A stretch of DNA of 34,880 nucleotides from Burkholderiaceae bacterium (GTDB taxonomy: Bacteria > Pseudomonadota > Gammaproteobacteria > Burkholderiales > Burkholderiaceae_F). This document shows positions 12,359 through 32,195 of this stretch, piece after piece. The stretch spans positions 1 to 34,880 of the forward strand of contig JACCZX010000302.1 of assembly GCA_013695705.1 (NCBI GenBank). The letters are read 5' to 3'. Within the stretch, counting starts at the first letter, position 1. Every line of letters begins with the position of its first letter. The notes below the pieces were generated by a model. That model did no database searches and was not told where the DNA came from. It saw only the letters and a list, made by a program, of their open reading frames with translations. The position numbers and the translations under genes are program-made.

Positions 12359-12404
12359 TTAAGTAGTCGGACCGCGCAGCGGGCCGATGGTCAATGGATG
12401 GGCG

Positions 12405-12692
12405 TTATGCAATAACGCCCATCAAATCTTCTTCGCGCATCACCAGCAGCTCGTCGCCTTCGACCTTGACGGTCTGGCCCGAGTACTTGCCGAACAGCAC
12501 GCGATCGCCGACTTTGACGTCGAGCGTAATAACCTTGCCGTTATCGTCGCGCTTGCCCGGACCGACAGCGACTATTTCGCCTTGATCTGGTTTTTCGGCG
12601 GCGTTGTCAGGAATGACGATGCCAGAGGCAGTCTTACGCTCGTTGTCCAGGCGTTTGACCATTACTCGATCGTGCAGAGGACGGATCTTCAT
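12405..12692 (-). CDS. groS: Co-chaperonin GroES (Cpn10)
   Basis: The ATG at 12692 gives [29 protein letters not shown]..., 95 aa. The upstream extension of the ORF to 12761 runs into the CIRCE region, so I discounted it. Confidence 0.97.
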
Positions 12693-12764
12693 GGGTTCTC
12701 CAGGTTGATAATTTCTCGACAGGGCGAGAAAACGAAAATCGGAAGCGGCGAATAATGCCACCTA

Positions 12765-12791
12765 TTAGCACTCTCCGCATTCGAGTGCTAA
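12765..12791 (-). promoter_or_regulatory. CIRCE operator (HrcA binding site)
   Basis: TTAGCACTC-N9-GAGTGCTAA is a perfect match to the CIRCE consensus inverted repeat. It lies 73 nt upstream of the groES ATG. Confidence 0.9.
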
Positions 12792-12818
12792 ATGGGAGCA
12801 AACCGCCCCGATTCAAGC
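12792..12818 (-). promoter_or_regulatory. Candidate sigma-32-type heat-shock promoter of groESL
   Basis: The minus strand reads gCTTGAAt-(14-15 nt)-tCCCATtT immediately upstream of CIRCE, close to the CTTGAAA/CCCCATNT consensus. This is a pattern match only. Confidence 0.4.
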
Positions 12819-13014
12819 CTGGAAAACTGTTTTCACACAAGCCGCAACCGCTCAAGAGCCAAACACGAGCGCCCGTCGCTTAGAAGTGACCACTAACATT
12901 TACCCGTGAGACTGTAAGGTTCGTCCTAGCGATGAACACGCAGTAAGAGAAAATTTTCTTCAACCGTACTGCAAACGCGCTATTAGGTGACCCCCGCGGG
13001 CGCCGAAGATTAGG

Positions 13015-13025: not shown

Positions 13026-13736
13026 ATGGGGTGTTACGTGGCAATCGATTTTCCGCTTCGGCTTCCGCAACATTGGCTTGCATCGTCTGCACCCAGAGGC
13101 AAAGGGCCGAAGGAAACGTTGCGCGCTTTTGTCGACAGCGTGATGAGCTACACGAAAATGGACGTGCCGACGGTCGAGTTGTTCGAGACCGCAGTCACAT
13201 TCGACGAGAAGCATCGCGATCCCTTGTCGGCTCACCAATGTTTGTCGCGTACCTTCGGCAAGAAAGCGGGGGTCAGCTTCGTGTTTCGTGCCGATACCGC
13301 GAGCCCGGGCCGATACTGGGTTTATTCGGCCGATCCGTGGCTCGAGCCGCCAGCCGAAGCAGTTAGTGCGCTCGCCCCGAAGCGACTGATGGTGCAGTTA
13401 TGCGAAGGACTGCCGTATCGATTTACGCTCGAAGCGTGTGTCGGCCGTGAAAAACTGGTTGCCGGCGAAAAAGAGGTCGAACCATTTCGCACGGCGGAGG
13501 AAGTCGAGGCGTGGATAAAAGTCACCGGCCCGAAGCTCGGCTTCAAAGTCGACTTCTTTAACGTGGCCATCAAGGAACTGCAGTTTCCCTATGGTGAGCG
13601 CACCATAAAGTTGCCGTACGCTTCGATCGAAGGTGTGCTGCAGGTGACAGATGCCGAGTTGATGAAACGGCCGTTGTTACGTGGTATCGGCTCGTATCGC
13701 AGAGTCGGTTTGGGGCTGCTGCAGTTGTCCAACTGA
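13026..13736 (+). CDS. Stand-alone Cas6e (CasE/Cse3)-like RAMP endoribonuclease homologue
   Basis: The C-terminus ASIEGVLQVTDAELMKRPLLRGIGSYRRVGLGLLQLSN matches the Cas6e glycine-rich tail as I remember it (E. coli CasE ...FEGVLTINDAPALIDLVQQGIGPAKSMGCGLLSLAPL; T. thermophilus Cse3 ...LRRGVGPGKALGLGLLSVAP). The middle G.PYRFTLEA...(x)..AEEVEAWIKVTGPKLGFKV parallels G..L.FRLRANP....E...WL.RK....GF. The N-terminal DPLSAHQCLSRTF parallels the catalytic-His region (NPYEMHRTLSKAV). The Cas6e-like core would begin near ATG 13143 or 13158 (192-197 aa), and the longest ORF adds a 39-44 aa extension. No obvious SD precedes any of the three ATGs. Confidence 0.65.
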   Translation: MGCYVAIDFPLRLPQHWLASSAPRGKGPKETLRAFVDSVMSYTKMDVPTVELFETAVTFDEKHRDPLSAHQCLSRTFGKKAGVSFVFRADTASPGRYWVYSADPWLEPPAEAVSALAPKRLMVQLCEGLPYRFTLEACVGREKLVAGEKEVEPFRTAEEVEAWIKVTGPKLGFKVDFFNVAIKELQFPYGERTIKLPYASIEGVLQVTDAELMKRPLLRGIGSYRRVGLGLLQLSN

Positions 13737-13796: not shown

Positions 13797-14618
13797 TCAT
13801 CGCGCCCCGATCCGCAGCTCTTCCGTCCACACGCTTTCCGGCTGCGTTAGAAGAAACCGCACGGCTTCGGCCACCTCGCTCGGCTGCAGAAATTTTTCGC
13901 CTTGTGCCTGCCGCTGCAACTTGCCCTCGATCGTGTCGGCCCCGAAATCGGTCAGGATGCCTCCGGGCAAAATCGAACTGACCCGGATGCCTTGCCCTCG
14001 CAGCTCGAGCGCCAACGTGCGCATCAGCGCCAGCAGTGCCCACTTGCTCGCTGCGTACGCGCCCAGGCCGGGCATCACGCCATAAGAAAACTCAGAGCCG
14101 ATCGCGATCATCATTCCCCGCGTCGCGCGTAGATGCGGAATCGCTGCGCGCGCGACAAGAAACGCGCTGGTCACATTGGTGGCAAACACGCGCTGCCAAT
14201 TTTCGAGCGAAAACTGCTCGATGCCTCCTACCAGCCCGACCCCCGCATTCAGGATGACAGCGTCGAGACGCGCGAAGTGGCGGACCGCCGTTTCCATGGC
14301 GCACGTGACGTCGGCCTCATTGGTAAGATCGGCAGCGATCGGGAGCGCGCAGGCGACAAGCAATGCACGACTCAGAATCTGGTCGCTGCGCGTGTTGACA
14401 CCGAGCGGCAGCCGCTGTTGATTCGTGTGATCGCCGCATGTTTCCGCCACCGATGTGAGCAGATCTGCGCGTCGCGCCACCAGTGCCACCTTCGCTCCGC
14501 TCGCTGTCAGCATGCGCGCGATCGTCGCGCCGACGCCGCTGCTAGCGCCCGCTACCAGGATGACTTTATCCCGCAATGAATTGGTCACTGCAGTTTTCGA
14601 GTGGATTTTTTCTGTCAT
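13797..14618 (-). CDS. Short-chain dehydrogenase/reductase (classical SDR)
   Basis: VAGASSGVGATIA (TGxxxGxG-type), NAGVG and S...YAASK catalytic motifs. The ATG overlaps the stop of the upstream Gfo/Idh/MocA gene (ATGA). Confidence 0.85.
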   Translation of the reverse strand: MTEKIHSKTAVTNSLRDKVILVAGASSGVGATIARMLTASGAKVALVARRADLLTSVAETCGDHTNQQRLPLGVNTRSDQILSRALLVACALPIAADLTNEADVTCAMETAVRHFARLDAVILNAGVGLVGGIEQFSLENWQRVFATNVTSAFLVARAAIPHLRATRGMMIAIGSEFSYGVMPGLGAYAASKWALLALMRTLALELRGQGIRVSSILPGGILTDFGADTIEGKLQRQAQGEKFLQPSEVAEAVRFLLTQPESVWTEELRIGAR

Positions 14619-15634
14619 CCGACTCGAGCGACGTCGACTCGCATCCCGCCCGCTGCAAGTGATTTTTCAAACGCAAGCGTTAGCGCCAATGTGCGCACCC
14701 CCTCCTCGAAGCTGGCGCCGACTGCGCCCGGATCAGCTGCGCGCGCCGCAGTAATGAACTTGCGAAGCGACGCATACCAGGAGGCTGCGCCCGAGAAGCC
14801 ATGCGGCACGATATTGGAAATTGGCTCGGCTATGTGCGAGATTGCGGACCCATCACAATGGCCCGACATTGCCTCCGGAAAAAAATTCAGATGCAGATGC
14901 AGATCGCGGGCGACCACGTCGATGCTCCAACGCCCGCCATGAGTGGCGCAGCTCAGGCCGAAACTCCCCACGCCGCCCGATGCAAATTCGATCGTCGCCG
15001 CCGCGACATCCTCGACCGCGCACCCCGCAGGTTCCAGTAAATTGCGCGCGCCGACATACGTAACGCGCCGGGCGTCACCGCCGAACAGCCGCATCAAGTC
15101 GATGATATGCGTACCCGACTCGACCAACGCCCCGCCCGAGAGTGACTTATCGCGCCACCACACCGGCGGAGGTGCGGCGGTAATGACCGTGCCCTGAATC
15201 AATCCCACAGCACGACTGCCCAACAAAGTGCGTGCCCGGTGCACAAGTGGCGAACTGCGCCACATATAGCCGCTGGCGGCGACCACGCCGGACTTGCGCA
15301 CCGCGTCGAGGTCATGCAACGCTGCTTCGATACTGAGACCGACCGGCTTTTCCGCATACAGATGAACGTCGGCATTCGCGATGCGCGCGACGACACCGGC
15401 GGTGGCAAAGGGCGGCAGGCAGACAATCAGTGCATCGAGTCCGCAGCTCAGCAGTTCGTCCAGGCCTGACACCACCGCCGCTTTGCGTGAGTCAGCCAGG
15501 TCGTGAGCGCGCGCGGAATCAATGTCCGCCACTGCGACCAACTCGGCTTCGGGTATTTGATCGAGGTTGCGCGCGTGGATTCCGGCGATCGTCCCGGCGC
15601 CCAGCATGCCGAGGCGAAGTGCGCGATCGGTCAT
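14615..15634 (-). CDS. Gfo/Idh/MocA-family NAD(P)-dependent oxidoreductase
   Basis: LGMLGAGTIAGIHARNL Rossmann N-terminus, the EKP motif (YAEKPVGL), and an alpha/beta C-terminal domain. 339 aa. Confidence 0.85.
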   Translation of the reverse strand: MTDRALRLGMLGAGTIAGIHARNLDQIPEAELVAVADIDSARAHDLADSRKAAVVSGLDELLSCGLDALIVCLPPFATAGVVARIANADVHLYAEKPVGLSIEAALHDLDAVRKSGVVAASGYMWRSSPLVHRARTLLGSRAVGLIQGTVITAAPPPVWWRDKSLSGGALVESGTHIIDLMRLFGGDARRVTYVGARNLLEPAGCAVEDVAAATIEFASGGVGSFGLSCATHGGRWSIDVVARDLHLHLNFFPEAMSGHCDGSAISHIAEPISNIVPHGFSGAASWYASLRKFITAARAADPGAVGASFEEGVRTLALTLAFEKSLAAGGMRVDVARVG

Positions 15635-22340: not shown

Positions 22341-22427
22341 CCTCGGAACCACGGTATTCGGCGCTGACACTACGCTGGCTTCGCGTACAACGCAGGCTCG
22401 GTAATAGCGCGAGATGGGTTGCAACAA

Positions 22428-22823
22428 ATGGCGGCTCTGGACTTTACGGAAATCCGCGGCAAGAAAGTGATGGTGATCGATGATTCGAACACTATCCGCC
22501 GCAGCGCAGAGATTTTTCTATCGCAGGCCGGCTGCCAGGTGATCTTGGCGCAGGATGGATTTGAAGCGCTTTCAAAAATCAACGATCACCAACCCAACAT
22601 CATTTTTTGCGACATCTTGATGCCGCGTCTTGATGGCTATCAGACATGCGCACTGATTAAAAGAAGCCCGCGTTTTCACAAGACCCCAGTGGTGATGCTG
22701 TCGTCGAAAGACGGATTGTTCGATCGCGCGCGCGGACGCATGGTTGGTTCGAGCGAGTATCTAACCAAACCTTTTACCAAGGATAGTTTGCTGACCGCTG
22801 TACGCCAGCACTCAATGAATTAA
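22428..22823 (+). CDS. pilG: Twitching-motility response regulator PilG (CheY-like)
   Basis: KVMVIDDSNTIRR...IIFCDILMPRLDGYQTCALIK...MLSSKDGLFDRARGRMVGSSEYLTKPF closely resembles P. aeruginosa PilG as I remember it. An alternative TTG start is at 22419. Confidence 0.9.
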   Translation: MAALDFTEIRGKKVMVIDDSNTIRRSAEIFLSQAGCQVILAQDGFEALSKINDHQPNIIFCDILMPRLDGYQTCALIKRSPRFHKTPVVMLSSKDGLFDRARGRMVGSSEYLTKPFTKDSLLTAVRQHSMN

Positions 22824-22853
22824 AAAAATAGGCTGTTGGCGGAGGGAAGTGCC

Positions 22854-23219
22854 ATGCCGATTAAGAAAGTTCTGATCGTCGACGATTCGCCGACCGAGCG
22901 CCATGTATTGACCGAGATGCTGACCAAGCAGGGCTTCGCCGTGTCGACTGCGGAGAACGCGGACGAGGCAATGATCAAGGTCAAGACGATGCCGCCGGAC
23001 CTGATTCTGATGGATGTTGTGATGCCTGGACAAAACGGTTTTCAGCTTACGCGTGCCCTGTCCAAGGACCCGGCGACGCAGAACATCCCAATCATCATGT
23101 GTACCAGCAAGAACCAGCAGACCGATCGTATTTGGGGCCTGCGCCAAGGCGCGCGTGACTATGTCGTCAAGCCGGTCAAGGCTGATGAGTTGTTTGAAAA
23201 GATCGCGGCGTTTAATTAG
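22854..23219 (+). CDS. pilH: Twitching-motility response regulator PilH (CheY-like)
   Basis: The ATG at 22854 is preceded by GGAGGGA. MPIKKVLIVDDSPTERH...DVVMPGQNGFQLTR...KP is a single receiver domain. Confidence 0.9.
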   Translation: MPIKKVLIVDDSPTERHVLTEMLTKQGFAVSTAENADEAMIKVKTMPPDLILMDVVMPGQNGFQLTRALSKDPATQNIPIIMCTSKNQQTDRIWGLRQGARDYVVKPVKADELFEKIAAFN

Positions 23220-23268
23220 TTAGTGGCAGACACAGATAGTCAGCGGAGCAGGTAAGCAACCGGCGAAC

Positions 23269-23823
23269 ATGGCAACGAGCAGAGAAGCGTCCAACCGACA
23301 GATGGTCAAACTGCGCGAATTTTCGACGCAGCTGGCGCAACGTCTGAAGGACGCTCCGAACAAGCCCACCGAGCCGACGCGCTTGGCAGTGCGTATTGGG
23401 GCCGAAAGTTATTTGATCGAAATGGCGTTGGCTGGAGAGATTGTGAGCCTGCCGGGAATTGCGCCGGTGCCGTGGACTCGGCCATGGTATCGAGGGCTTG
23501 CCAATGTCCGTGGCAGATTGATCGGCGTGGTTGACATTATGCAGCTCAGCGGTCGTGATCCTTTGCCACCGGACCAATCGCAACAAGTTTTGGTTTTCGG
23601 CGAGGTGCTTGGAGTCAACGCAGGCATCCTCGTGTCGCGTGCGTTCGGCATTCGCAACTTGAAAGAACTAACGCTGCTGGAGGGCGAGGCGCCGGCGACG
23701 GGCCTGGCACCGCGCGCGAGCTGGGAGCACGCACGCTATCGGGACAACGACGGTTTGACGATGACCGAGCTCGAGTTGCGCGAGCTTGCCATGTCGCCGC
23801 ACTTTTCAGCAATCGGTGTATGA
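23269..23823 (+). CDS. pilI: CheW-like coupling protein PilI
   Basis: CheW-domain pattern (LAVRIGAESYLIEM...VPWTRPWYRGLANVRGRLIGVVD) in the position between pilH and pilJ. Confidence 0.85.
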   Translation: MATSREASNRQMVKLREFSTQLAQRLKDAPNKPTEPTRLAVRIGAESYLIEMALAGEIVSLPGIAPVPWTRPWYRGLANVRGRLIGVVDIMQLSGRDPLPPDQSQQVLVFGEVLGVNAGILVSRAFGIRNLKELTLLEGEAPATGLAPRASWEHARYRDNDGLTMTELELRELAMSPHFSAIGV

Positions 23824-23966
23824 GTGGCGCGACTTTGGTCGGCCTGATTTGTAGCAAAGCATGCGAAACAAAAAAGGCGACCGCAACATGCGGCGTGACG
23901 ATGCCGGCCAGATCAACAATGGCGGCACAAGGGTGTAACGGTGGAGCTGTAGTGGCGGAGGGTTAG

Positions 23967-26231
23967 ATGGCGCTCGACATGGCATCGATGGTAAGCAAGA
24001 AAAAACCTAAAGAGCGATCGAGTCGGAATCGCGATTCGTTTCGGCCGAGCGTGCTGGACACGATGTCGCCTGGCACGACGACAGCGGTGCCGGCGCCGAA
24101 GACCGTGATGCTCGAGCGCCCTGGCACCACCGGCGGCGCGATGCGCTTCATGGATCGGCTGATCGAGATGCGGTTGCCGGTGATTGGCGACAAGCCCGTC
24201 AACACGCAGGTTCAGGTTTTGTTGGCGTTGCTGGTCACGTTCCTGTTGTTATTCGTTCTGGTGCTGATCATCGACAACCGTCTGGCATCCAACGGTGCGA
24301 TGCAGATCGAGATCGTCGGCGACACCTTGATGCACACGCAGCGTCTGGCCAAGGCGGCGCCGAATGCCGTCGGCGGCAACCGTTCGGCGTTCGTCGAGGT
24401 CAAGGAGAGCCGCGACGCAATTGCGGGCAACCTAGATGCGCTGAGCAAAGGCGATGACAAGCGCGGGCTGACCGCTTCGAGCGGCGATGCCATCACGCCG
24501 GCGGTGGACAAGCTGATGAACAACTGGCGCGCGAGCGAATCTGCGGCGTCGGTCATTCTTGCCAACGAAAAAACGCTGATGGCGTTTGGCGACGTGATCA
24601 AGAAAATCAACGACGCGAGTCCACGCCTGCAGCAATTGACCGAAGAAATCATGGCGCTCAAGCTGCAAGTCGGAGCTTCGTCGCGCGAAATTGCAACCGC
24701 CGGCCAGTTGGTAACGTTGACGCAGCGACTTGGCAAGAGCGCCAACTCGCTGGTGGCGGGCAACGTCGCGAATGCCGAAGTTGCTCTGACGCTCGGCCGC
24801 GACATCAACCAATTTCGCGATCTGACGCAAGCGCTTCTTTCCGGCAGCGAGGCCCTGCGTATCACTGCGTCGACCGATGCCGAGGCGCGCTCCCGTCTGC
24901 AGGAGCTGTTGAAGGTCTACGGCGAGTTTCAAAAGTCAATCGAAGGCGCGCTCGGAAGCTTGCAGGCCATCGTGCAGGCGAAGGAAGCCGAGCTCGGCAT
25001 CTTGCGCGACTCGGAAATGTTGCGCCAGCAAGTGGGGCAGTTAAGCGGCATGTACACCAGCGAACAACGCACGCGTGCTTTGAACTTGCTGCTGATGATT
25101 TTTTTCGGTGGCAGCTTGTTGCTGGCAGGGCTCGCCATATTCAAGGTACTGCTCGAAGACACGCGCCATCGGGCATCGGACGCCAACGTTCAGCGGATGC
25201 AGGCCGAGCGGCTTGAGCAGGACGCAAAGAAAACCAATGACGTGAATCAGGCCGCGATTTTGCGTCTGATGAACGAGTTGCAGGAAGTGGCCGACGGTAA
25301 CCTGACGGTGCAGGCCACGGTGTCCGAAGATATTACCGGCGCCATCGCGGATTCGGTCAACTACACGGTCGAGGAATTGCGCGGACTGGTGGGCCGCATC
25401 AACAATACGGCCGAGCAGGTCAGCACGGCGTCCACGCAGGCACGCGATATAGCGACGCGGTTGTTGACGGCGTCCGAAGCGCAGTCGAAGGAGATCAAGG
25501 ACACCGGCGATCAGGTGCTGAAAATGGCATCGCAGATCAACGACGTCTCGAAGAACGCCGGCGAATCGGCCAAGGTCGCGCGCGCGTCGCTCGAAGCGGC
25601 AGAGCGCGGACAGCGCGCGGTGTTCAATCAGATCAGCGGCATGAACGAGATCCGTGAGCAGATTCAGGAAACCGCCAAGCGCATCAAGCGCCTGGGCGAG
25701 TCATCGCAGGAAATCGGTGAGATCGTCGAGCTGATTTCCGACATTACCGAGCAGACCAACGTGCTGGCGTTGAACGCGGCAATACAGGCCGCTTCGGCGG
25801 GTGAAGCAGGGCGCGGCTTTTCGGTGGTAGCCGAGGAAGTGCAACGACTGGCCGATCGCTCGGCCGAAGCCGCCAAGCAGATCGGCGCGCTGGTGCGCAC
25901 GATTCAGACCGACACGCAGGACGCGGTCGCGGCCATGGAAAAGAGTACGCAGGGCGTGGTCGAAGGCGCCAAGCTGTCGGACGCGGCCGGCAATGCTCTG
26001 TCGGACATTGGCCGCGTTTCGCGCCAGCTGACCGATCAGGTCGAGAAGATTGCGTCGGCCACCAATGACCAGGCGCAGTCGGCCGGGGGTGTTGCTCATT
26101 CGATCGAAAGAATTTTGACTGTGACCGAGCAGACATCGCAGGGCACGCGGCAGGCCGCGCAGTCAATTGGGCAACTGGCCACGCTGGCGCACGAACTGAA
26201 AGCCTCGGTTGCTCGGTTCAGGGTGGGATAA
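23967..26231 (+). CDS. pilJ: Methyl-accepting chemotaxis-like receptor PilJ
   Basis: The ATG is preceded by GGAGGG. There are two TM segments, a large periplasmic helical domain, a HAMP domain and the conserved signalling hairpin ([33 protein letters not shown]). The cytoplasmic N-terminal extension before TM1 is about 85 aa. Confidence 0.9.
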
Positions 26232-26236
26232 GAGCG

Positions 26237-26266
26237 CGCGCAAAAGTGCAAACCTACTTTTGCGCG
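26237..26266 (+). terminator. Hairpin between pilJ and chpA (possible attenuator or partial terminator)
   Basis: An 11-bp perfect stem (cgcgcaaaagt / acttttgcgcg) with an 8-nt loop lies 6 nt after the pilJ stop, followed by attagttt. The U-tract is weak, so the function is uncertain. Confidence 0.35.
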
Positions 26267-26372
26267 ATTAGTTTGCGAAAAATCGCTGGCGGAGCCAGAC
26301 AATTTTTCGAGTGCAACGGCACGCAAGTGACGGGGGAGTCGCCACACGTGATCGCGATAGTCGAGGAATTGA

Positions 26373-29300
26373 ATGGCTGAGAAACATGATCCAAACCAAC
26401 TAGTAGGCGCTGCGCCCGACATCGCGCCGCTGGCGTGGGTCATCGATGAGATTCGCGCGTCGCTTACCGAAGCGGTCAACGGGCTCAAGGCGTTCGTCGC
26501 CAGCAAGCAGGACGTCGATAGTTTGCGCAATGCGCGCAACCAGATCCACCAGGCCAACGGTGCCTTGCAATTGCTCGACCTGCGCGGTGTAGCGTTGGTC
26601 ACCGAAGCGATCGAGCAACTGACGCGTCGCTTCGAAGCCGATCCGAAAGAATGTTCACCGGCGCCGATTCGAATAATCGAAACTGCGTTGTCTGCGGTGA
26701 TGGCCTACCTCGAAGGACTGTTGTCGGGGCGGTCGAATCAACCGATCAAGTTGTTTCCTTATTACCGCGATGTGTTGCAGTTGAACCAGGCGACCCGGGT
26801 TCATCCGGCCGACCTGGTGTTTCCGGACCTGTCGCGCCGCCCGGCTTTTCATCAGATCGAAGCGCGCAATTTCACACCGCGCCAGTTGCGCGATCGGCGC
26901 GCTCGATTCGAGCTCGGGCTGCTCGGTTTCCTGCGCAACTCTGATGACGCCGCGCCGCGCAAGCGCATGCGTGAAGCATTGTCGGATCTCGAACACATGC
27001 CGCAGCGCGGCCTCGCGCGCAGCTTCTGGTGGATCGCGCGCGGACTGCTCGAGGCGCTCGAAGCGGGCGCGGTCGCGGTCGACGTTGATTTGAAGCGGGT
27101 ACTGGCGCGGCTCAATTTGCAGCTGCGCCGCATGATCGAAGGCGGCGGTGCGGTAGCCGAGCGCTTAATGGTCGACACCCTTTATTACGTGGGCCGGGCA
27201 GAAGGAAATTTGCCACGCGTGCTCGAGGTTAAGCGCCTCTACGGGCTCGATGCGCTGATCCCGGCAGATTTCGAGCGTGCGAGCTTGACCGCACTCGACG
27301 CCGACGCATTGCGCGCGTTAAAAGAAGCGATGGTGCAGGCCAAGCAGTTGTGGGGTCAAATCGTCGCCGGTTCCCCCGACACTGCGAAGTTCGAACACGA
27401 GATTGCGCTCGCCCGCCAGACATCGCACAAACTGCACGCGCGACCGCTGGTAGCAACAGTGGACGCGATCGCCCGCGTCACGCACGAATTCGCCAAGCTG
27501 GCGCCGAATGTGCGAGAGGCACTCGGGCTCGAAATCGCTTCGGCTCTGCTGTTTTTCGATCTCGGCGTCGATGAACTGCCGCAGATCGAATCCGAGTACG
27601 AAGGGCGTGCGCTGCAGGTAATCGACCGGCTCGCCAAGGCGCGCAACGGTCAGGCGTTGCCGCAGGCGGGCCCGTGGATGTCCGAGCTGGCGCGACGTGC
27701 GCAGGATCGTCTGACGATGGGCACGGTGGTGGCCGAAACACAGGCCACGCTGCGTGATATCGAGCAGCGGCTCGACCGATTCTTCCGCAATCCGCTCGAG
27801 CGTGCGGACTTGCCAGGCACCACTGCGATGTTCGATCAGGTGTGCGGCGTTCTTTCATTGCTCGGCTACGACGAGCCCGTGGCGGCGTTGCGCAACGTCC
27901 AGACCTCGATCGCGCGCTTTGCTGACGCGACTGTGGCGCCGGAGCCCGACGAGTTCGGCCGCATTGCGCAAAACCTTGGCGCAATCGGCTTTTTTGTCGA
28001 AAGTGTCGGGCAGGATGCGGACCGGCCGCGCGGCATGTTCCGTTATGACCCGGTCACCGGAATATTCAGCGCCGACCTCGGTCAGTTTCAATCTTCCGAC
28101 ATGGTCAACGCGCCGGCGGACGACGACTACATCGCGCCGCGCACCGTCGACATTCGCTTGCCGGCCAGGCGTGGCGACAACGTCGAATCGGCAGCACGCA
28201 AGACACTCGAGGCGGCGCACGCGCAAGCGACAAGATTGCTGTTGGTCGCCGGCGATGCGCGCGCGATCGAAGAGCTCGAACGCCTGTTGCCAACGCTGGC
28301 CAACGAAGCCGATCTGCTCGACAACGATTCGCTCAAGCAGAACGCCGCCCGCGCCACGCAGCTGCTGACGCAGTTGAAGGAATCGAGCCGGCGCGAGGAC
28401 GCGGCCGAGCTCGAGCAATTGCTGGCGCCGATACGCGCGCTCGAAACTCCGAAGCCGACCGCGCCGCTGCCGGTATCCGAGGCGGCTGCCGATAACGAAT
28501 TGCGGCAGATTTTCGTGGAAGAAGCGCGCGACGTGCTCGACAGCATCCTCGAGCAGCTCGAAATGCTGCGCACCACGCGCGATGATCAGGCGACACTGAC
28601 GACGGTGCGGCGCGCCTATCACACTCTTAAAGGTTCGAGCCGAATGGTCGGCTTCAAAACCGTGGGCGAAGGCGCATGGGCGGTCGAACAGTGTTTCAAT
28701 CTCTGGCTGGCGCAGGAGCGCGCGGCAAGCGACGATCTGCTCGATCTCGCAGAAGGCTCGCAGCGCGTAATTCGTGATTGGGTCAACCAGATTGCGCGCA
28801 ATCCCGGTGCGGAGCCCGATCCGACACCGCTGGTGCGATCGGCGCAAGCAGTGCGTGAAGGTGGCGCGTTCGAGTATCCGCATAGCTTGCCGGGGACGCC
28901 ATCGTCCCCAAAGTCTGACGGCAGCGCGCCGGCAGCGACTATCGACGCGCTGCCTGTAAGGAAGACTGGGGACACCAGCGACACCGGCCCGGCGACGGTC
29001 GAATTAATCGCCGACGAAATCATCGACGGCGATGTCGCGCCGATGGGCGTGGAGGAAATCGAAGCGTCGACCGCTTCTGCGTCCGCGGCGGCGCTTCCCG
29101 CTGCCACAGTAGCCAATGAAGAACCTGGCAGCGAAGAGATCAAGCGCGTGGGTCCGCTCGAAATCAGTCACGGCCTGTATTCGATTTTTCTGACCGAGGC
29201 AGACGAGTGCATCCGTGTGCTTGCCAACGACATTGCCGAATGGCGTTATGAGCCGGCGCGCGGCGTGACGCCTAACATCATGCGGCGCGCTCATTCGCTG

Positions 29301-32195
29301 TCCGGTATTTCAAAGACTGTCGGACTGGCGCCGGTCGTCGCCATCGCCGAGCCGCTTGACGATCTGATGCGCACACTGACGATTCACGGCCCGCGCCATC
29401 TGGCGCTGACGGCTGCGCAATTCGACACGCTGGAGCGCGTCACCGATCGCGTGCGCGGCATGCTGCATCAGTTTGCCGCAGGCGTTTATCCCGATGAAGC
29501 ACCGCTCGAAGCGGGTGCGTTGCACGACCTGGTATCGGTCGTGCGAGCGCACAGCGCGCTGCATGACGACATGCACGAGGGTTCTGCGCTGCATCTGGTG
29601 GAAGTCGATGCGCCGGAAGTCGATGACAGCCCGGCATCCACGTTCGAAGCGGAAGCAAGGGTCGCTGAAGAGCCCCGGCCAACCGTGGACCAAGAGCCCA
29701 CCGCTGCGCGGCCGGCAGCAGCGACTTCGGCAGCGGCTGCCACTGGCGTGGAACGCCGCGCTACCGCTCGGTCCGAGACAGCAGCCGAAGCTGAACAGGT
29801 CGAGGCGTCGCGCTTGCGCGATGAACTCGACGCTGAACTGCTCGAGGTGTTCCTGACCGAAGCTGCCGAATTGTTGCCTTCGGTGGCGACCAACTTGCGC
29901 GGATTGGCGAGCAACCCCAATGAGGCGGAGCTGGCGCGCGATCTTATGCGCAAGCTGCACACCGTAAAGGGCAGTGCTCGAATGGCCGGCGCAATGCGGC
30001 TTGGCGAAGCGGTGCACGAGATGGAAACGCGAATGGAAGCTGCGATGCAGCTGGCCGATATCCCGCCAAAGACCATCGACGATCTACACACGCAGTATGA
30101 CCATGCAATGGGGTTGTACGACGAGTTGCAAAAGCCTGCAGTCGTCGTCAGCACGGTTGCGGCGGAGGAGATATCAGCGTTGCCCGCAAGCCAGCCACCG
30201 CGGGCGCCCGTTATCGACATCGCCGCCAAGCGCGCCGACGGCAAGGCCGAAGCGCACAAGGCACCTGGAGCGCCTTTGGCGATGGCGAGCGAAGTCAGTG
30301 CGACATTGAGCGCTGCCACGCCGGGTGCAGCACCCGTGGCAACGTTTATCCGCGTGCGTGCTGACGTGTTGGACAAGCTGGTAGACCAAGCGGGCGAGGT
30401 CTCGATTGCGCGCTCGAAACTAGAAAACGAAGTGGGCACCATCAAGGGTTCGCTCACGGATCTGACCGAAAACATTTCGCGCCTGCGAGCGCAATTGCGC
30501 GAAGTCGAAATACAGGCCGATGCGCAGATTCAGGCGCGTGGCGATCAGCTGTCGCGTGACTCAGCGGATTTCGATCCGCTCGAATTTGACCGTTACACGC
30601 GACTGCAGGAGCTGACGCGCATGCTGGCGGAATCGGTCGAAGACGTCGCGATGGTCCAGAGCAACATGTTGAAGGGACTGCAAAGCGCCGATACCGATCT
30701 GACGTCGCAATCGCGCTTGACGCGCGATCTGCAACAGCAACTGATGCGCGTTCGACTGGTGCCGTTCTCTAATGTGTCGGAGCGTTTGTACCGGGTAGCG
30801 CGGCAAGTTGCGAAGGAGCTCGACAAGCGCGTCAACCTCGACATTCGCGGCGCCACAACGGAGCTCGATCGCGGTGTGCTCGAAAAAATGGCGGGCCCGT
30901 TTGAACACCTGATCCGAAACGCGATCGTGCACGGCCTCGAAGGGCCGGTCGAGCGTCGCACGGCGGGCAAACCGGAGGTGGGCGAGCTGACTCTCGATGT
31001 GCGGCAGGAAGGTAACGAAATTATTGTCGTCATCAACGATGACGGCGCAGGGTTGCATCTGGAGCGCATCCAGGCACGCGCGGTCGAGCGTGGATTGATC
31101 ACGCCGGACCAGCTCCTGAGCGATCGCGAGCTAATGGAGCTTATTTTTCAGCCCGGTTTTACGACCGCAACCGAGGTCACCGAGTTGGCCGGCCGTGGTG
31201 TCGGCATGGATGTCGTACGCGCGGAGCTTGGATCCTTCGGCGGACGCATTTCGATCTCGAGTGAAAGTGGCCGTGGCACGCGCTTCACGTTGTACCTGCC
31301 TATGACACTGGCGGTCGCACAAGTGGTGCTGGTCGGCATCGGCGGCCGCCGCTATGCCATTCCTGCCGGCATGGTCGAGCAGGTACGTCGCTATCGCCCC
31401 GCGGTTTTACTGGCAGCGCTCACGGACGGGCTGCTCGAGATCCCGCCGATCGGCGCGGTCGTGCTGCGACCGCTCACGCAACTGCTTGGCGAAGAAACCA
31501 CACCGCACCTGGCGCGGCAGACGCCAGTGGTGCTGTTGCGCTCGGGCGACGATCGGCTGGCGATTGCAGTCGACGAAGTTTCGAGCAATCAGGAAGTTGT
31601 GGTCAAAAGCGTCGGCGTGCAAGTCGCACGGCTGGCCGGCATTCTGGGCGCCACGATTCTCGGTAATGGCGAGATCGTGTTGATCATCAATCCAGTGCAG
31701 TTGATCACGCGCGCGCCCGAGCCACCTGCGGTGTTCGACGTCGCACCCGATGCGCGCGATGAAGCAAGAGCGGCGCAGAAGCGGATCGATCACGTGACCG
31801 AATTGTCGACGTCGAACGTGCCGACCGTGATGGTGGTAGACGATTCGCTCACGGTGCGCAGGGTTACGCAACGGCTGCTCGAGCGCCAGGGTTACACGGT
31901 GCTGCTGGCGAAGGATGGGGTCGATGCTCTGCGCCAGCTGCAGGACGTCAAGCCCGACATCATGTTGGTCGACATTGAAATGCCGCGTATGGACGGCTAC
32001 GACCTGACGCGCAACGTGCGCGGCAACACTCAGACTGCCCAGATTCCGATCATCATGATTACGTCTCGAACGGCGGAGAAGCATCGGAAGATGGCGTTCG
32101 AGCTGGGTGTCAACGAGTACCTTGGCAAGCCTTATCAGGAAGACGAGCTGCTGAAGTTCATTAAGCAGTATTTGGCGGAGCGCGTGCCGGCGTAG
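26373..32195 (+). CDS. chpA: Hybrid CheA-type histidine kinase ChpA/PilL (multiple Hpt domains, dimerisation/HATPase core, CheW-like domain, C-terminal receiver)
   Basis: GAGGA lies 7 nt upstream of the ATG. Hpt motifs are IHQANGAL (N-terminal, FimL-like region), AYHTLKGSSRMVG, AHSLSGISKTVG and KLHTVKGSARMAG. HATPase boxes are HLIRNAIVHGLE, NDDGAGL and GRGVGMDVV. A CheW-like segment (RYAIPAGMVEQV) is followed by a receiver (VMVVDDSLTVRR...DIEMPRMDGYDL...KP). 1940 aa. Confidence 0.92.
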   Translation: MAEKHDPNQLVGAAPDIAPLAWVIDEIRASLTEAVNGLKAFVASKQDVDSLRNARNQIHQANGALQLLDLRGVALVTEAIEQLTRRFEADPKECSPAPIRIIETALSAVMAYLEGLLSGRSNQPIKLFPYYRDVLQLNQATRVHPADLVFPDLSRRPAFHQIEARNFTPRQLRDRRARFELGLLGFLRNSDDAAPRKRMREALSDLEHMPQRGLARSFWWIARGLLEALEAGAVAVDVDLKRVLARLNLQLRRMIEGGGAVAERLMVDTLYYVGRAEGNLPRVLEVKRLYGLDALIPADFERASLTALDADALRALKEAMVQAKQLWGQIVAGSPDTAKFEHEIALARQTSHKLHARPLVATVDAIARVTHEFAKLAPNVREALGLEIASALLFFDLGVDELPQIESEYEGRALQVIDRLAKARNGQALPQAGPWMSELARRAQDRLTMGTVVAETQATLRDIEQRLDRFFRNPLERADLPGTTAMFDQVCGVLSLLGYDEPVAALRNVQTSIARFADATVAPEPDEFGRIAQNLGAIGFFVESVGQDADRPRGMFRYDPVTGIFSADLGQFQSSDMVNAPADDDYIAPRTVDIRLPARRGDNVESAARKTLEAAHAQATRLLLVAGDARAIEELERLLPTLANEADLLDNDSLKQNAARATQLLTQLKESSRREDAAELEQLLAPIRALETPKPTAPLPVSEAAADNELRQIFVEEARDVLDSILEQLEMLRTTRDDQATLTTVRRAYHTLKGSSRMVGFKTVGEGAWAVEQCFNLWLAQERAASDDLLDLAEGSQRVIRDWVNQIARNPGAEPDPTPLVRSAQAVREGGAFEYPHSLPGTPSSPKSDGSAPAATIDALPVRKTGDTSDTGPATVELIADEIIDGDVAPMGVEEIEASTASASAAALPAATVANEEPGSEEIKRVGPLEISHGLYSIFLTEADECIRVLANDIAEWRYEPARGVTPNIMRRAHSLSGISKTVGLAPVVAIAEPLDDLMRTLTIHGPRHLALTAAQFDTLERVTDRVRGMLHQFAAGVYPDEAPLEAGALHDLVSVVRAHSALHDDMHEGSALHLVEVDAPEVDDSPASTFEAEARVAEEPRPTVDQEPTAARPAAATSAAAATGVERRATARSETAAEAEQVEASRLRDELDAELLEVFLTEAAELLPSVATNLRGLASNPNEAELARDLMRKLHTVKGSARMAGAMRLGEAVHEMETRMEAAMQLADIPPKTIDDLHTQYDHAMGLYDELQKPAVVVSTVAAEEISALPASQPPRAPVIDIAAKRADGKAEAHKAPGAPLAMASEVSATLSAATPGAAPVATFIRVRADVLDKLVDQAGEVSIARSKLENEVGTIKGSLTDLTENISRLRAQLREVEIQADAQIQARGDQLSRDSADFDPLEFDRYTRLQELTRMLAESVEDVAMVQSNMLKGLQSADTDLTSQSRLTRDLQQQLMRVRLVPFSNVSERLYRVARQVAKELDKRVNLDIRGATTELDRGVLEKMAGPFEHLIRNAIVHGLEGPVERRTAGKPEVGELTLDVRQEGNEIIVVINDDGAGLHLERIQARAVERGLITPDQLLSDRELMELIFQPGFTTATEVTELAGRGVGMDVVRAELGSFGGRISISSESGRGTRFTLYLPMTLAVAQVVLVGIGGRRYAIPAGMVEQVRRYRPAVLLAALTDGLLEIPPIGAVVLRPLTQLLGEETTPHLARQTPVVLLRSGDDRLAIAVDEVSSNQEVVVKSVGVQVARLAGILGATILGNGEIVLIINPVQLITRAPEPPAVFDVAPDARDEARAAQKRIDHVTELSTSNVPTVMVVDDSLTVRRVTQRLLERQGYTVLLAKDGVDALRQLQDVKPDIMLVDIEMPRMDGYDLTRNVRGNTQTAQIPIIMITSRTAEKHRKMAFELGVNEYLGKPYQEDELLKFIKQYLAERVPA

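Follow-up and report, generated by a model that had tools for sequence, protein, structure and literature searches.

A stand-alone Cas6e-like gene beside groESL in uncultured Burkholderiaceae: a candidate CRISPR-independent RNA-binding protein

Introduction

What does a Cas6e-family protein do in a stretch of DNA that carries no other component of a CRISPR system? The question is raised by a Burkholderiaceae bacterium (GenBank assembly GCA_013695705.1), of which positions 1 to 34,880 of contig JACCZX010000302.1 were analyzed; this whole stretch of 34,880 nucleotides is called the window in the following. At 13026-13736 on the plus strand it contains an open reading frame (ORF) of 236 codons, coding for 236 amino acids and closed by the stop codon at 13734-13736. 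An initial annotation, made from the DNA letters and their translations, had described it as an orphan gene resembling Cas6e, the CRISPR RNA (crRNA) endoribonuclease of type I-E systems, and had left three explanations side by side: a Cas6e fold exapted for RNA processing outside CRISPR, a component of an undescribed minimal system, and the lone survivor of a lost type I-E locus.

The analysis described here favors, with moderate confidence, the first of these: a protein that binds or processes RNA hairpins independently of CRISPR, and that is a domesticated, stand-alone descendant of Cas6e. Exaptation of the fold is supported by an intact and syntenic gene, by a ratio of nonsynonymous to synonymous substitution rates (dN/dS) of 0.12, by a pace of evolution like that of housekeeping genes, and by the presence of an empty site in relatives.

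Assignment to the Cas6e Family

The ORF product belongs to the Cas6e family, both by profile and by fold. The Pfam model PF08798 matches with 63.7 bits (cut-off 25), pairing residues 60-234 with profile positions 16-221 of 223, and TIGR01907 (casE_Cse3) reaches 52.9 bits versus a curated cut-off of 45.2; both profiles proposed as a check of the family call were thus passed. The top PADLOC model for the ORF is also Cas6e (1.8e-21), the type IV Cas6 models scoring far lower. When compared by phmmer with the sequences of solved structures, residues 65-235 pair with residues 15-197 of Escherichia coli CasE, with His70 placed on CasE His20 and GIGSYRRVGLG on the glycine-rich loop. Indeed, the three Cas6e motifs named in the initial annotation are all present, and the C-terminal GxGxxRRxGLG is invariant.

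With 40 family sequences as input, AlphaFold2 gave a model with a mean predicted local distance difference test (pLDDT) score of 86 and a predicted template modeling (TM) score of 0.74, with pLDDT >90 over most of residues 45-236. The structure search that had been suggested alongside the profiles agrees with them, since Cas6e chains make up all of the 26 top-ranking Foldseek matches in the PDB: Thermus Cse3 (2y8w) is found with E=2.6e-13 and E. coli CasE, as part of Cascade, with target-normalised TM scores of 0.73-0.76 (0.76 for 4u7u_D). Overall, target-normalised TM scores to canonical Cas6e range between 0.64 and 0.76, and identity to the solved Cas6e proteins is about 20%. The family call was therefore borne out by profiles, PADLOC and fold alike.

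The true start codon is probably GTG at 13038 and not ATG at 13026, because in the alignment of close relatives the equivalent of this ATG runs into an in-frame TAA, and GTG is kept among them together with a GGGG located 8-11 nucleotides before it. The N-terminal extension that had been noted ahead of the Cas6e-like core is real and conserved as protein, as indicated by the alignment and by its dN/dS. It contains the motifs LRLPxHWL, KGKGP and FVxSVMSYTK; F35, S41 and T43 hardly vary, and distant members have Leu in place of M45. Conservation at the protein level and the replacement of M45 indicate that the extension is translated. In the AlphaFold model it is disordered (pLDDT <50).

Absence of Other CRISPR Components

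In type I-E operons, cas6e lies alongside cse1, cse2, cas7e, cas5e, cas3, cas1 and cas2; none of these accompanies the ORF in the window. A Pfam scan of every called gene of the window returned only housekeeping functions, and no Cas family other than the Cas6e-like ORF. Similarly, no CRISPR array, CRISPR-DR element or tRNA was detected in the window by TRF, by Rfam at gathering thresholds and by ARAGORN; a CRISPR-DR29 match, which appears when Rfam is searched at E<=10 (E=1.7), lies within groEL and is due to chance. The orphan status of the gene, as first described, is thus confirmed by the lack of cas genes (Pfam) and of arrays (TRF, Rfam).

The same picture was obtained from the related loci. 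A k-mer periodicity scan across 1.04 Mb of 64 related loci gave no array-like periodic repeat, and PADLOC identified no Cas family among 89 representatives of the clusters of neighboring genes in the related loci. Of the neighbor clusters, 24 were outside the PADLOC scan; most of these were named via Pfam matches on members or equivalents, some by reading the representative sequence only, and three are antisense or gene-calling artefacts. PADLOC also gave single matches to mad3/mad8 (MADS), HEC-01/02 and AriA/Old-type ATPases, each in one cluster representative and none recurrent.

Distribution, Synteny and Vertical Inheritance

The gene is not confined to the window genome. In a collection of 5.8 billion proteins, 71 relatives were found, down to 43% identity; most are 229-230 residues long, and several are labelled as proteins of Burkholderiaceae metagenome-assembled genomes (MAGs). 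A scan of one genome per GTDB species yielded 60 loci with orthologues sharing 45-91% identity, nearly all from MAGs titled uncultured Burkholderiaceae, Burkholderiales or ‘beta proteobacterium’. In two MAGs the gene is present twice, on separate contigs: MFD10007.bin.2.152 (L024 and L027) has copies with 77% and 80% identity to the window protein, and SMAG_U13814 (L008 and L045) has copies with 88% and 83%. Each copy adjoins its own groES where the contig allows, and these bins are more likely to represent mixed strains than true paralogues.

Neighborhoods were read after gene calling with a codon-usage model and clustering. Of the 51 loci with a gene on the upstream side, 44 have the groES-groEL pair there as divergent neighbor, members with 45-50% identity included; the L002/L042 lineage carries the gene away from groES. 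On the other side the neighbor varies: it is dacB (Peptidase_S13) in 23 loci, a DUF1501/DUF1800 pair in 12 and a thioredoxin-TPR gene (CnoX/YbbN-like) in another 12, while in the window it is a gene for a short-chain dehydrogenase/reductase (SDR). Precomputed Pfam labels on two independent contigs concur with these assignments. With a downstream neighbor so variable, no conserved operon partner can be put forward, and the proposal of an undescribed minimal system finds no support.

Relatives devoid of the gene help to reconstruct its history. A metagenome scan with the GroES sequence of the window retrieved 80 groES loci with 77-90% GroES identity; among them, the gene lies upstream of groES only in the four loci with the closest GroES (L065-L068). 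In seven relatives lacking it, dacB is directly divergent to groES, with a gap of 77-442 nucleotides; tblastn at E<=10 detected no remnant of the gene in these seven empty sites, and no cas debris. As sister lineages show this empty dacB-groES site, the simplest history is that a cas6e-derived gene was inserted there once, in the clade's ancestor. A mobile-element origin was rejected: none of 50,697 phage records contains the family, and the matches on plasmids are canonical cas6e only, at 31% identity.

Codon alignments of 43 full-length orthologues, considering 749 pairs with synonymous divergence (dS) between 0.2 and 2.0, gave a median dN/dS of 0.12, which shows purifying selection, with 0.105 for the core and 0.27 for the N-terminal extension. 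Between the window gene and its closest relatives dN/dS is 0.04-0.06, with dS near saturation. Protein identity to the window decreases together with that of three nearby genes: in the close clade it is 86.7% for the gene, 80.7% for dacB, 84.6% for DsbD and 81.8% for hemL; in the middle clade, 76.1%, 73.7%, 71.7% and 75.5%, respectively; and in the far clade, 51.6%, 65.3%, 59.8% and 74.1%. Since the divergence of the gene tracks that of dacB, DsbD and hemL, it is, judged from these comparisons, a vertically inherited and functional chromosomal gene, and not a pseudogene or a recently transferred defence gene.

These data leave hardly any room for a decaying remnant of a lost type I-E locus. 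A remnant might also appear as a single cas-like gene without neighboring cas genes, and the copies in three long-read MAGs (L041, L056 and L062) look frameshifted or truncated, being either pseudogenes or the product of indel errors; however, these few cases fall in assemblies that are prone to such errors, whereas the ORF is intact and syntenic in about 60 species, down to 45% identity and at the low median dN/dS given above. The family moreover has invariant residues of its own, described below, and its sister lineages show an empty site without cas debris. The lone survivor considered in the initial annotation is accordingly rejected.

Differences from Canonical Cas6e

When 1.84 billion cluster representatives were searched with the family profile, 19 matches fell below 1e-30, and these are family members and fragments. 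Family sequences score 130-370 bits against their own profile and canonical Cas6e follows at <=61 bits (E>=1e-11); because of this gap, the family is placed by profile comparison as an isolated clade, without intermediates to canonical Cas6e. Giant proteins of 2,500-7,300 residues (P0072, P0077, P0090, P0092, P0093, P0097 and P0211), also top-ranked in the profile search, are an artefact: they consist of fibronectin-III-like repeats, and a 40-residue strand-turn-strand stretch, LxxGxxYxFxxxAxxG, weakly matches each repeat, so that 6-11 bits each are summed over 5-48 repeats.

The family was then compared with canonical Cas6e in an alignment of 40 members and 111 canonical sequences, the latter taken from the profile search. 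Positions common to both groups are F77, S101, P109, F133, W163, G172, G203 and the four loop glycines G220, G222, G228 and G230, which are invariant in the 40 family members and present in >=99% of the 111 canonical sequences. R96, W98, W105, R120, K149 and R226 are invariant residues of the family’s own, R226 standing where canonical Cas6e has Ala or Ser; the invariant basic residues are R96, R120, K149, R225 and R226. Relative to canonical Cas6e, the family also has an insert of about 10 residues after strand 1.

The active site is remodelled. The His at the catalytic position is found in 97% of the 111 canonical sequences, in 82% of the 40 family proteins and in 53 of 58 species loci. The retention of a putative catalytic His, emphasized when the gene was first described, thus holds for the window gene (His70) but not for the whole family. 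The residue is replaced by Asn or Cys in P0036, P0039 and P0041-P0045; the lineage with Asn, L002/L042/L043, is still constrained (dN/dS 0.09 between L002 and L043), which suggests a conserved function that has no strict need for His. Three residues before the His, the family has an invariant Leu67, while half of the canonical sample (50%) has Tyr, the residue that acts as general base of the Tyr/His/Lys triad in TtCas6e (PMC3727216). The departure of the RANP-type motif, read as LEACVG in the initial annotation, is real and holds family-wide in the alignment: Asn and Pro, present in 78% and 87% of canonical sequences, respectively, are replaced by Cys in 97% of the family and then by Val, Ala or Ile (Cys-Val in the window protein).

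The extent of these changes bears on another explanation, namely that the protein is a relocated but canonical crRNA-processing subunit, serving a type I-E or type IV system, or a lone array, elsewhere in the genome. This is unlikely: the gene occupies one fixed housekeeping junction across about 60 species and diverges as fast as housekeeping genes do, a large score gap separates it from all canonical Cas6e, and the 1.04 Mb of related loci yielded neither an array nor a cas gene. Although the equivalog cut-off of TIGR01907 is passed, and the glycine-rich loop is retained together with His in most members, Tyr and Asn-Pro are lost, an extension has been gained and His is missing in one constrained lineage. 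A system elsewhere would be compatible with a view limited to a 35-kb window and to loci of 20 kb; however, canonical type I-E loci carry their own cas6e, and CRISPR-Cas loci are patchy and often lost.

Candidate Function in RNA Binding

The preferred explanation, a CRISPR-independent protein acting on RNA hairpins, builds on what the family has kept. The retained two-RRM architecture, the glycine-rich loop and the basic residues would make specific binding of an RNA stem-loop the most likely activity; stem-loop recognition seems the most probable function because conservation within the family is highest in those parts through which Cas6e contacts RNA. RNA processing is suggested by the fold: in most members, His70 could catalyze metal-independent cleavage at the base of a hairpin, as occurs in Cas6e. 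As Tyr is changed to Leu, Asn-Pro is lost and His is replaced by Asn in a lineage under constraint, tight hairpin binding, as a regulator or a protector, may instead be the activity that has been conserved, with cleavage perhaps secondary or lost. The N-terminal extension, basic and disordered, probably contributes contacts with RNA or with a partner.

Three observations weigh against this explanation. The count of 25 Lys/Arg versus 25 Asp/Glu, previously reported for the 192-residue core, is exact and corresponds to an isoelectric point (pI) of 6.8; the family has a median net charge of +4 and a median pI of 9.2, compared with +9 and 9.6 for canonical Cas6e, and a near-neutral core and a lower charge are less typical of an RNA binder. 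Furthermore, RNAalifold detected no conserved hairpin in the gene’s own flanks besides the CIRCE element of groESL, and no RNA target was identified. Finally, the CRISPR-free context covers the 35-kb window and related loci of <=20 kb, so that a CRISPR-Cas locus elsewhere in the genome could still use the protein in trans.

The near-neutral core charge also agrees with a different fate of the fold, that is, its repurposing for a role that does not involve RNA, for instance as a protein- or DNA-binding adaptor in which nuclease chemistry was lost. The family-wide loss of Tyr and Asn-Pro and the dispensability of His in one lineage would fit such a role, and the conserved disordered N-terminal motif could serve for docking. 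We give this possibility a low, though not negligible, probability: we know of no other RAMP protein whose role lies outside nucleic acids. Besides, the invariant residues cluster in RNA-contacting elements, i.e., the glycine-rich loop with its two added arginines, R96, R120 and K149 (PMC3727216).

The groESL Region and a Possible RNA Target

A more specific form of the RNA-hairpin explanation, of which it is a sub-case, is that the protein is a dedicated factor of the groESL transcript, setting the relative stability and expression of groES and groEL. Adjacency to groES in 44 of 51 loci, in spite of rearrangements on the other flank, is in line with this idea, and so is a GC-rich bipartite hairpin found in the groES-groEL spacer, whose sequence on the mRNA strand is UCGG-C-CCGC-UGC-GCGG-U-CCGA. 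Its stem of 9-10 base pairs, GC-rich and with a small loop, is of the class of Cas6e substrates (PMC3727216).

The covariance model of this hairpin has a single match in the window at E<=0.1. Among gene-carrying loci it was found in 34 of 62, always in the groES-groEL spacer and nowhere else in 1 Mb, with two tandem copies in L067; the same model gave no match in the 76 groES loci that lack the gene. A scan based on structure only detected the hairpin in 32 of 46 loci with the gene versus 9 of 58 without it. A multi-copy, REP-like nature is ruled out, given that the window has a single copy of the hairpin and the other loci have it in that spacer alone. Covariation is weak, with two pairs changing on both sides; 90% of cells are paired, compared with 22-45% in slid controls.

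The link between hairpin and gene is nevertheless weak, because both traits mark one clade, on which the model was trained, so that the association is confounded by phylogeny; at least eight gene-carrying loci have short spacers without the hairpin, covariation is modest, and in the L002/L042 sublineage the gene lies away from groES. For the adjacency itself, a single insertion and subsequent vertical descent would be a sufficient explanation. Thus, the spacer hairpin as the RNA target of the protein is speculative, and a dedicated groESL factor is a rather improbable outcome. The same low expectation applies to its most explicit version, in which the solo Cas6e would bind, and in most species cleave, the hairpin of the groES-groEL spacer or that of the CIRCE RNA, thereby tuning the groES:groEL stoichiometry or the stability of the mRNA.

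The region between groES and the gene contains other conserved elements. The groES leader carries a perfect CIRCE inverted repeat, TTAGCACTC-N9-GAGTGCTAA, which is conserved or slightly variant across related loci; it is the only structure recovered by RNAalifold windows on the alignment of the groES-gene intergenic region, on both strands. An apparent hairpin before the conserved GCCGAAGAT motif was not upheld across loci. Directly upstream of CIRCE on the groES strand is the sequence CTTGAAT-N12-CTCCCAT, which we take to be a sigma-32-like promoter. Hence, groESL appears to be controlled by both HrcA and RpoH, an arrangement that has been reported for beta-proteobacteria.

Closer to the Cas6e-like gene, the block GAAGTGACCACTAACAT occurs once in the window versus 0.02 times expected by chance, and a related CACTAAC core is present in the middle clade; it is probably a promoter or operator of the solo gene. 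A sigma-70 promoter for the gene was also considered and discarded, as the only consensus match is intragenic and there is no excess over chance. In the 5′ leader of groES, between CIRCE and the ribosome-binding site, a small hairpin (TTTCTCG-ACAGGG-CGAGAAA) was observed, the stem TCTCG/CGAGA of which is kept in relatives with variable loops; its 5′ arm could instead base-pair with GGAGAA, the Shine-Dalgarno sequence, in a thermosensor-like fashion.

Other Features of the Window

The features discussed here are collected in Table 1. The housekeeping genes identified by Pfam include ribBA, ribH, nusB, thiL, cinA, pyrF, an M48 peptidase, DUF898, groEL and groES, and also the SDR, a GFO/IDH/MocA oxidoreductase, dacB, AhpC/TSA, dsbD, hemL, thiE, the pilG-pilJ-chpA chemosensory cluster, a photolyase, algH and ruvX. 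The SDR and GFO/IDH/MocA pair (clusters 134 and 135) is convergent with the Cas6e-like gene and inserted before dacB; among the compared loci, only the window genome has it between the gene and dacB.

The chemosensory cluster, of the pilG/pilH/pilI/pilJ/chpA type, is ordinary but large and comprises two receiver domains, CheW, a PilJ-MCP protein and a hybrid kinase of 1,940 residues with multiple Hpt domains. A further ORF, coding for 557 residues, has good coding statistics, and Pfam returned nothing for it at E<=0.001; in the metagenome locus L089, a weak relative with 29% identity is encoded upstream of groES.

Table 1. Positions of the features of the window discussed in the text.
Feature	Position	Strand	Basis or remark
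Solo Cas6e-like coding sequence	13038..13736	+	Conserved, probable start GTG 13038; longest ORF from ATG 13026
N-terminal extension, about 35 residues, basic	13038..13142	+	Protein conservation; ends where canonical Met1 aligns (residue 40)
Cas6e core, two RRM/ferredoxin-like domains	13143..13733	+	AlphaFold2 pLDDT, Foldseek
His70 codon CAC	13233..13235	+	phmmer alignment with catalytic His20 of E. coli CasE
Glycine-rich loop GIGSYRRVGLG, Cas6 hallmark	13683..13715	+	Invariant glycines; family-specific invariant R225, R226
Conserved non-coding block GAAGTGACCACTAACAT	12883..12899	+	About 140 nucleotides upstream of start; close-clade conservation
Presumed sigma-32-like promoter of groES	about 12793-12820	-	Directly upstream of CIRCE
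CIRCE inverted repeat	12765-12791		groES leader
Small leader hairpin	12713-12730		Between CIRCE and ribosome-binding site
groES, divergent neighbor	12405..12692	-	Pfam Cpn10; conserved across clade
GC-rich bipartite hairpin, groES-groEL spacer	12359..12394 (core 12367-12387)	-	Covariance model R1, 25.5 bits
SDR and GFO/IDH/MocA pair	13797-15634	-	Convergent with Cas6e-like gene
ORF of 557 residues	4123-5796	+	Coding statistics
Chemosensory cluster	22419-32195	+	pilG/pilH/pilI/pilJ/chpA type

Relation to Known Systems and Significance

The known CRISPR exaptations concern whole effector modules, such as CRISPR-associated transposons (CAST), type IV and type I-E with STAND, or proteins that act on DNA, such as Cas1 and Cas4. 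No solo or orphan Cas6e clade was described in the full-text literature searched, CRISPR evolution reviews included, which represents absence of evidence only, as subscription journals were mostly beyond reach.

Canonical Cas6e, as exemplified by E. coli CasE/YgcH and Thermus thermophilus Cse3, shares with the solo family the profile families, the two-RRM fold, the glycine-rich loop and the positions W163, G172 and G203; most solo members also have the His of helix alpha-1. Unlike canonical Cas6e, the solo gene has no cas operon or array, occupies a fixed housekeeping site and is vertically inherited, and its product is distinguished by the extension of about 35 residues, the insert of about 10, the changes from Tyr to Leu and from Asn-Pro to Cys-Val/Ala, and a lower charge.

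Some precedents for Cas proteins outside adaptive immunity are available. In Streptomyces, a type I-E derivative made of cas5-cas6-cas7-cas8 is linked to a STAND NTPase; this module likewise has no Cas3, adaptation module or array and is presumed to act outside adaptive immunity, but it keeps four Cascade genes in a defence context, whereas the solo Cas6e is one gene among housekeeping genes (PMC8730458). Solo-Cas4 and the stand-alone Cas1 of casposons are Cas-family genes located, like the solo Cas6e, away from CRISPR-cas loci, and they are presumed to serve functions that have nothing to do with CRISPR (PMC5704561; PMC6452270); however, they are DNA nucleases or integrases, often found on mobile elements, while the solo Cas6e has a RAMP RNA-binding fold and a stable chromosomal site. 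As regards the active site, Cas6 paralogues of Sulfolobus are active without a general acid/base, and Pyrococcus horikoshii Cas6nc is a non-catalytic RNA binder (PMC3727216). Such His-less variants, comparable to the His-to-Asn sublineage, provide a precedent for specific RNA binding with or without cleavage, although, unlike the solo Cas6e, they remain in CRISPR-cas contexts and act on CRISPR repeats.

A practical consequence concerns the databases. Members of the solo family (P0010-P0042) are labelled ‘type I-E CRISPR-associated protein Cas6/Cse3/CasE’ by IMG and NCBI. The window protein exceeds the equivalog cut-off of TIGR01907 by about 8 bits, and it is because the family passes this cut-off that public pipelines mislabel it; the type I-E naming is probably a systematic over-annotation, which inflates the counts of orphan cas genes and will mislead CRISPR-Cas censuses of the genomes that carry the family.

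Exchange between defence and the core functions of the cell is a main theme of CRISPR evolution, and the solo Cas6e would illustrate it cleanly, as a RAMP RNA endonuclease that the host took on as one of its stable genes, with a single insertion, a spread over about 60 species, purifying selection and a remodelled active site. It offers a defined system for asking what Cas6 does without CRISPR, and it may yield a new orthogonal hairpin-binding protein for RNA engineering. Should the improbable groESL version prove true, the protein would be the first of the Cas6 family to have a housekeeping RNA as its dedicated substrate, placed in the circuit that controls the heat-shock chaperonin.

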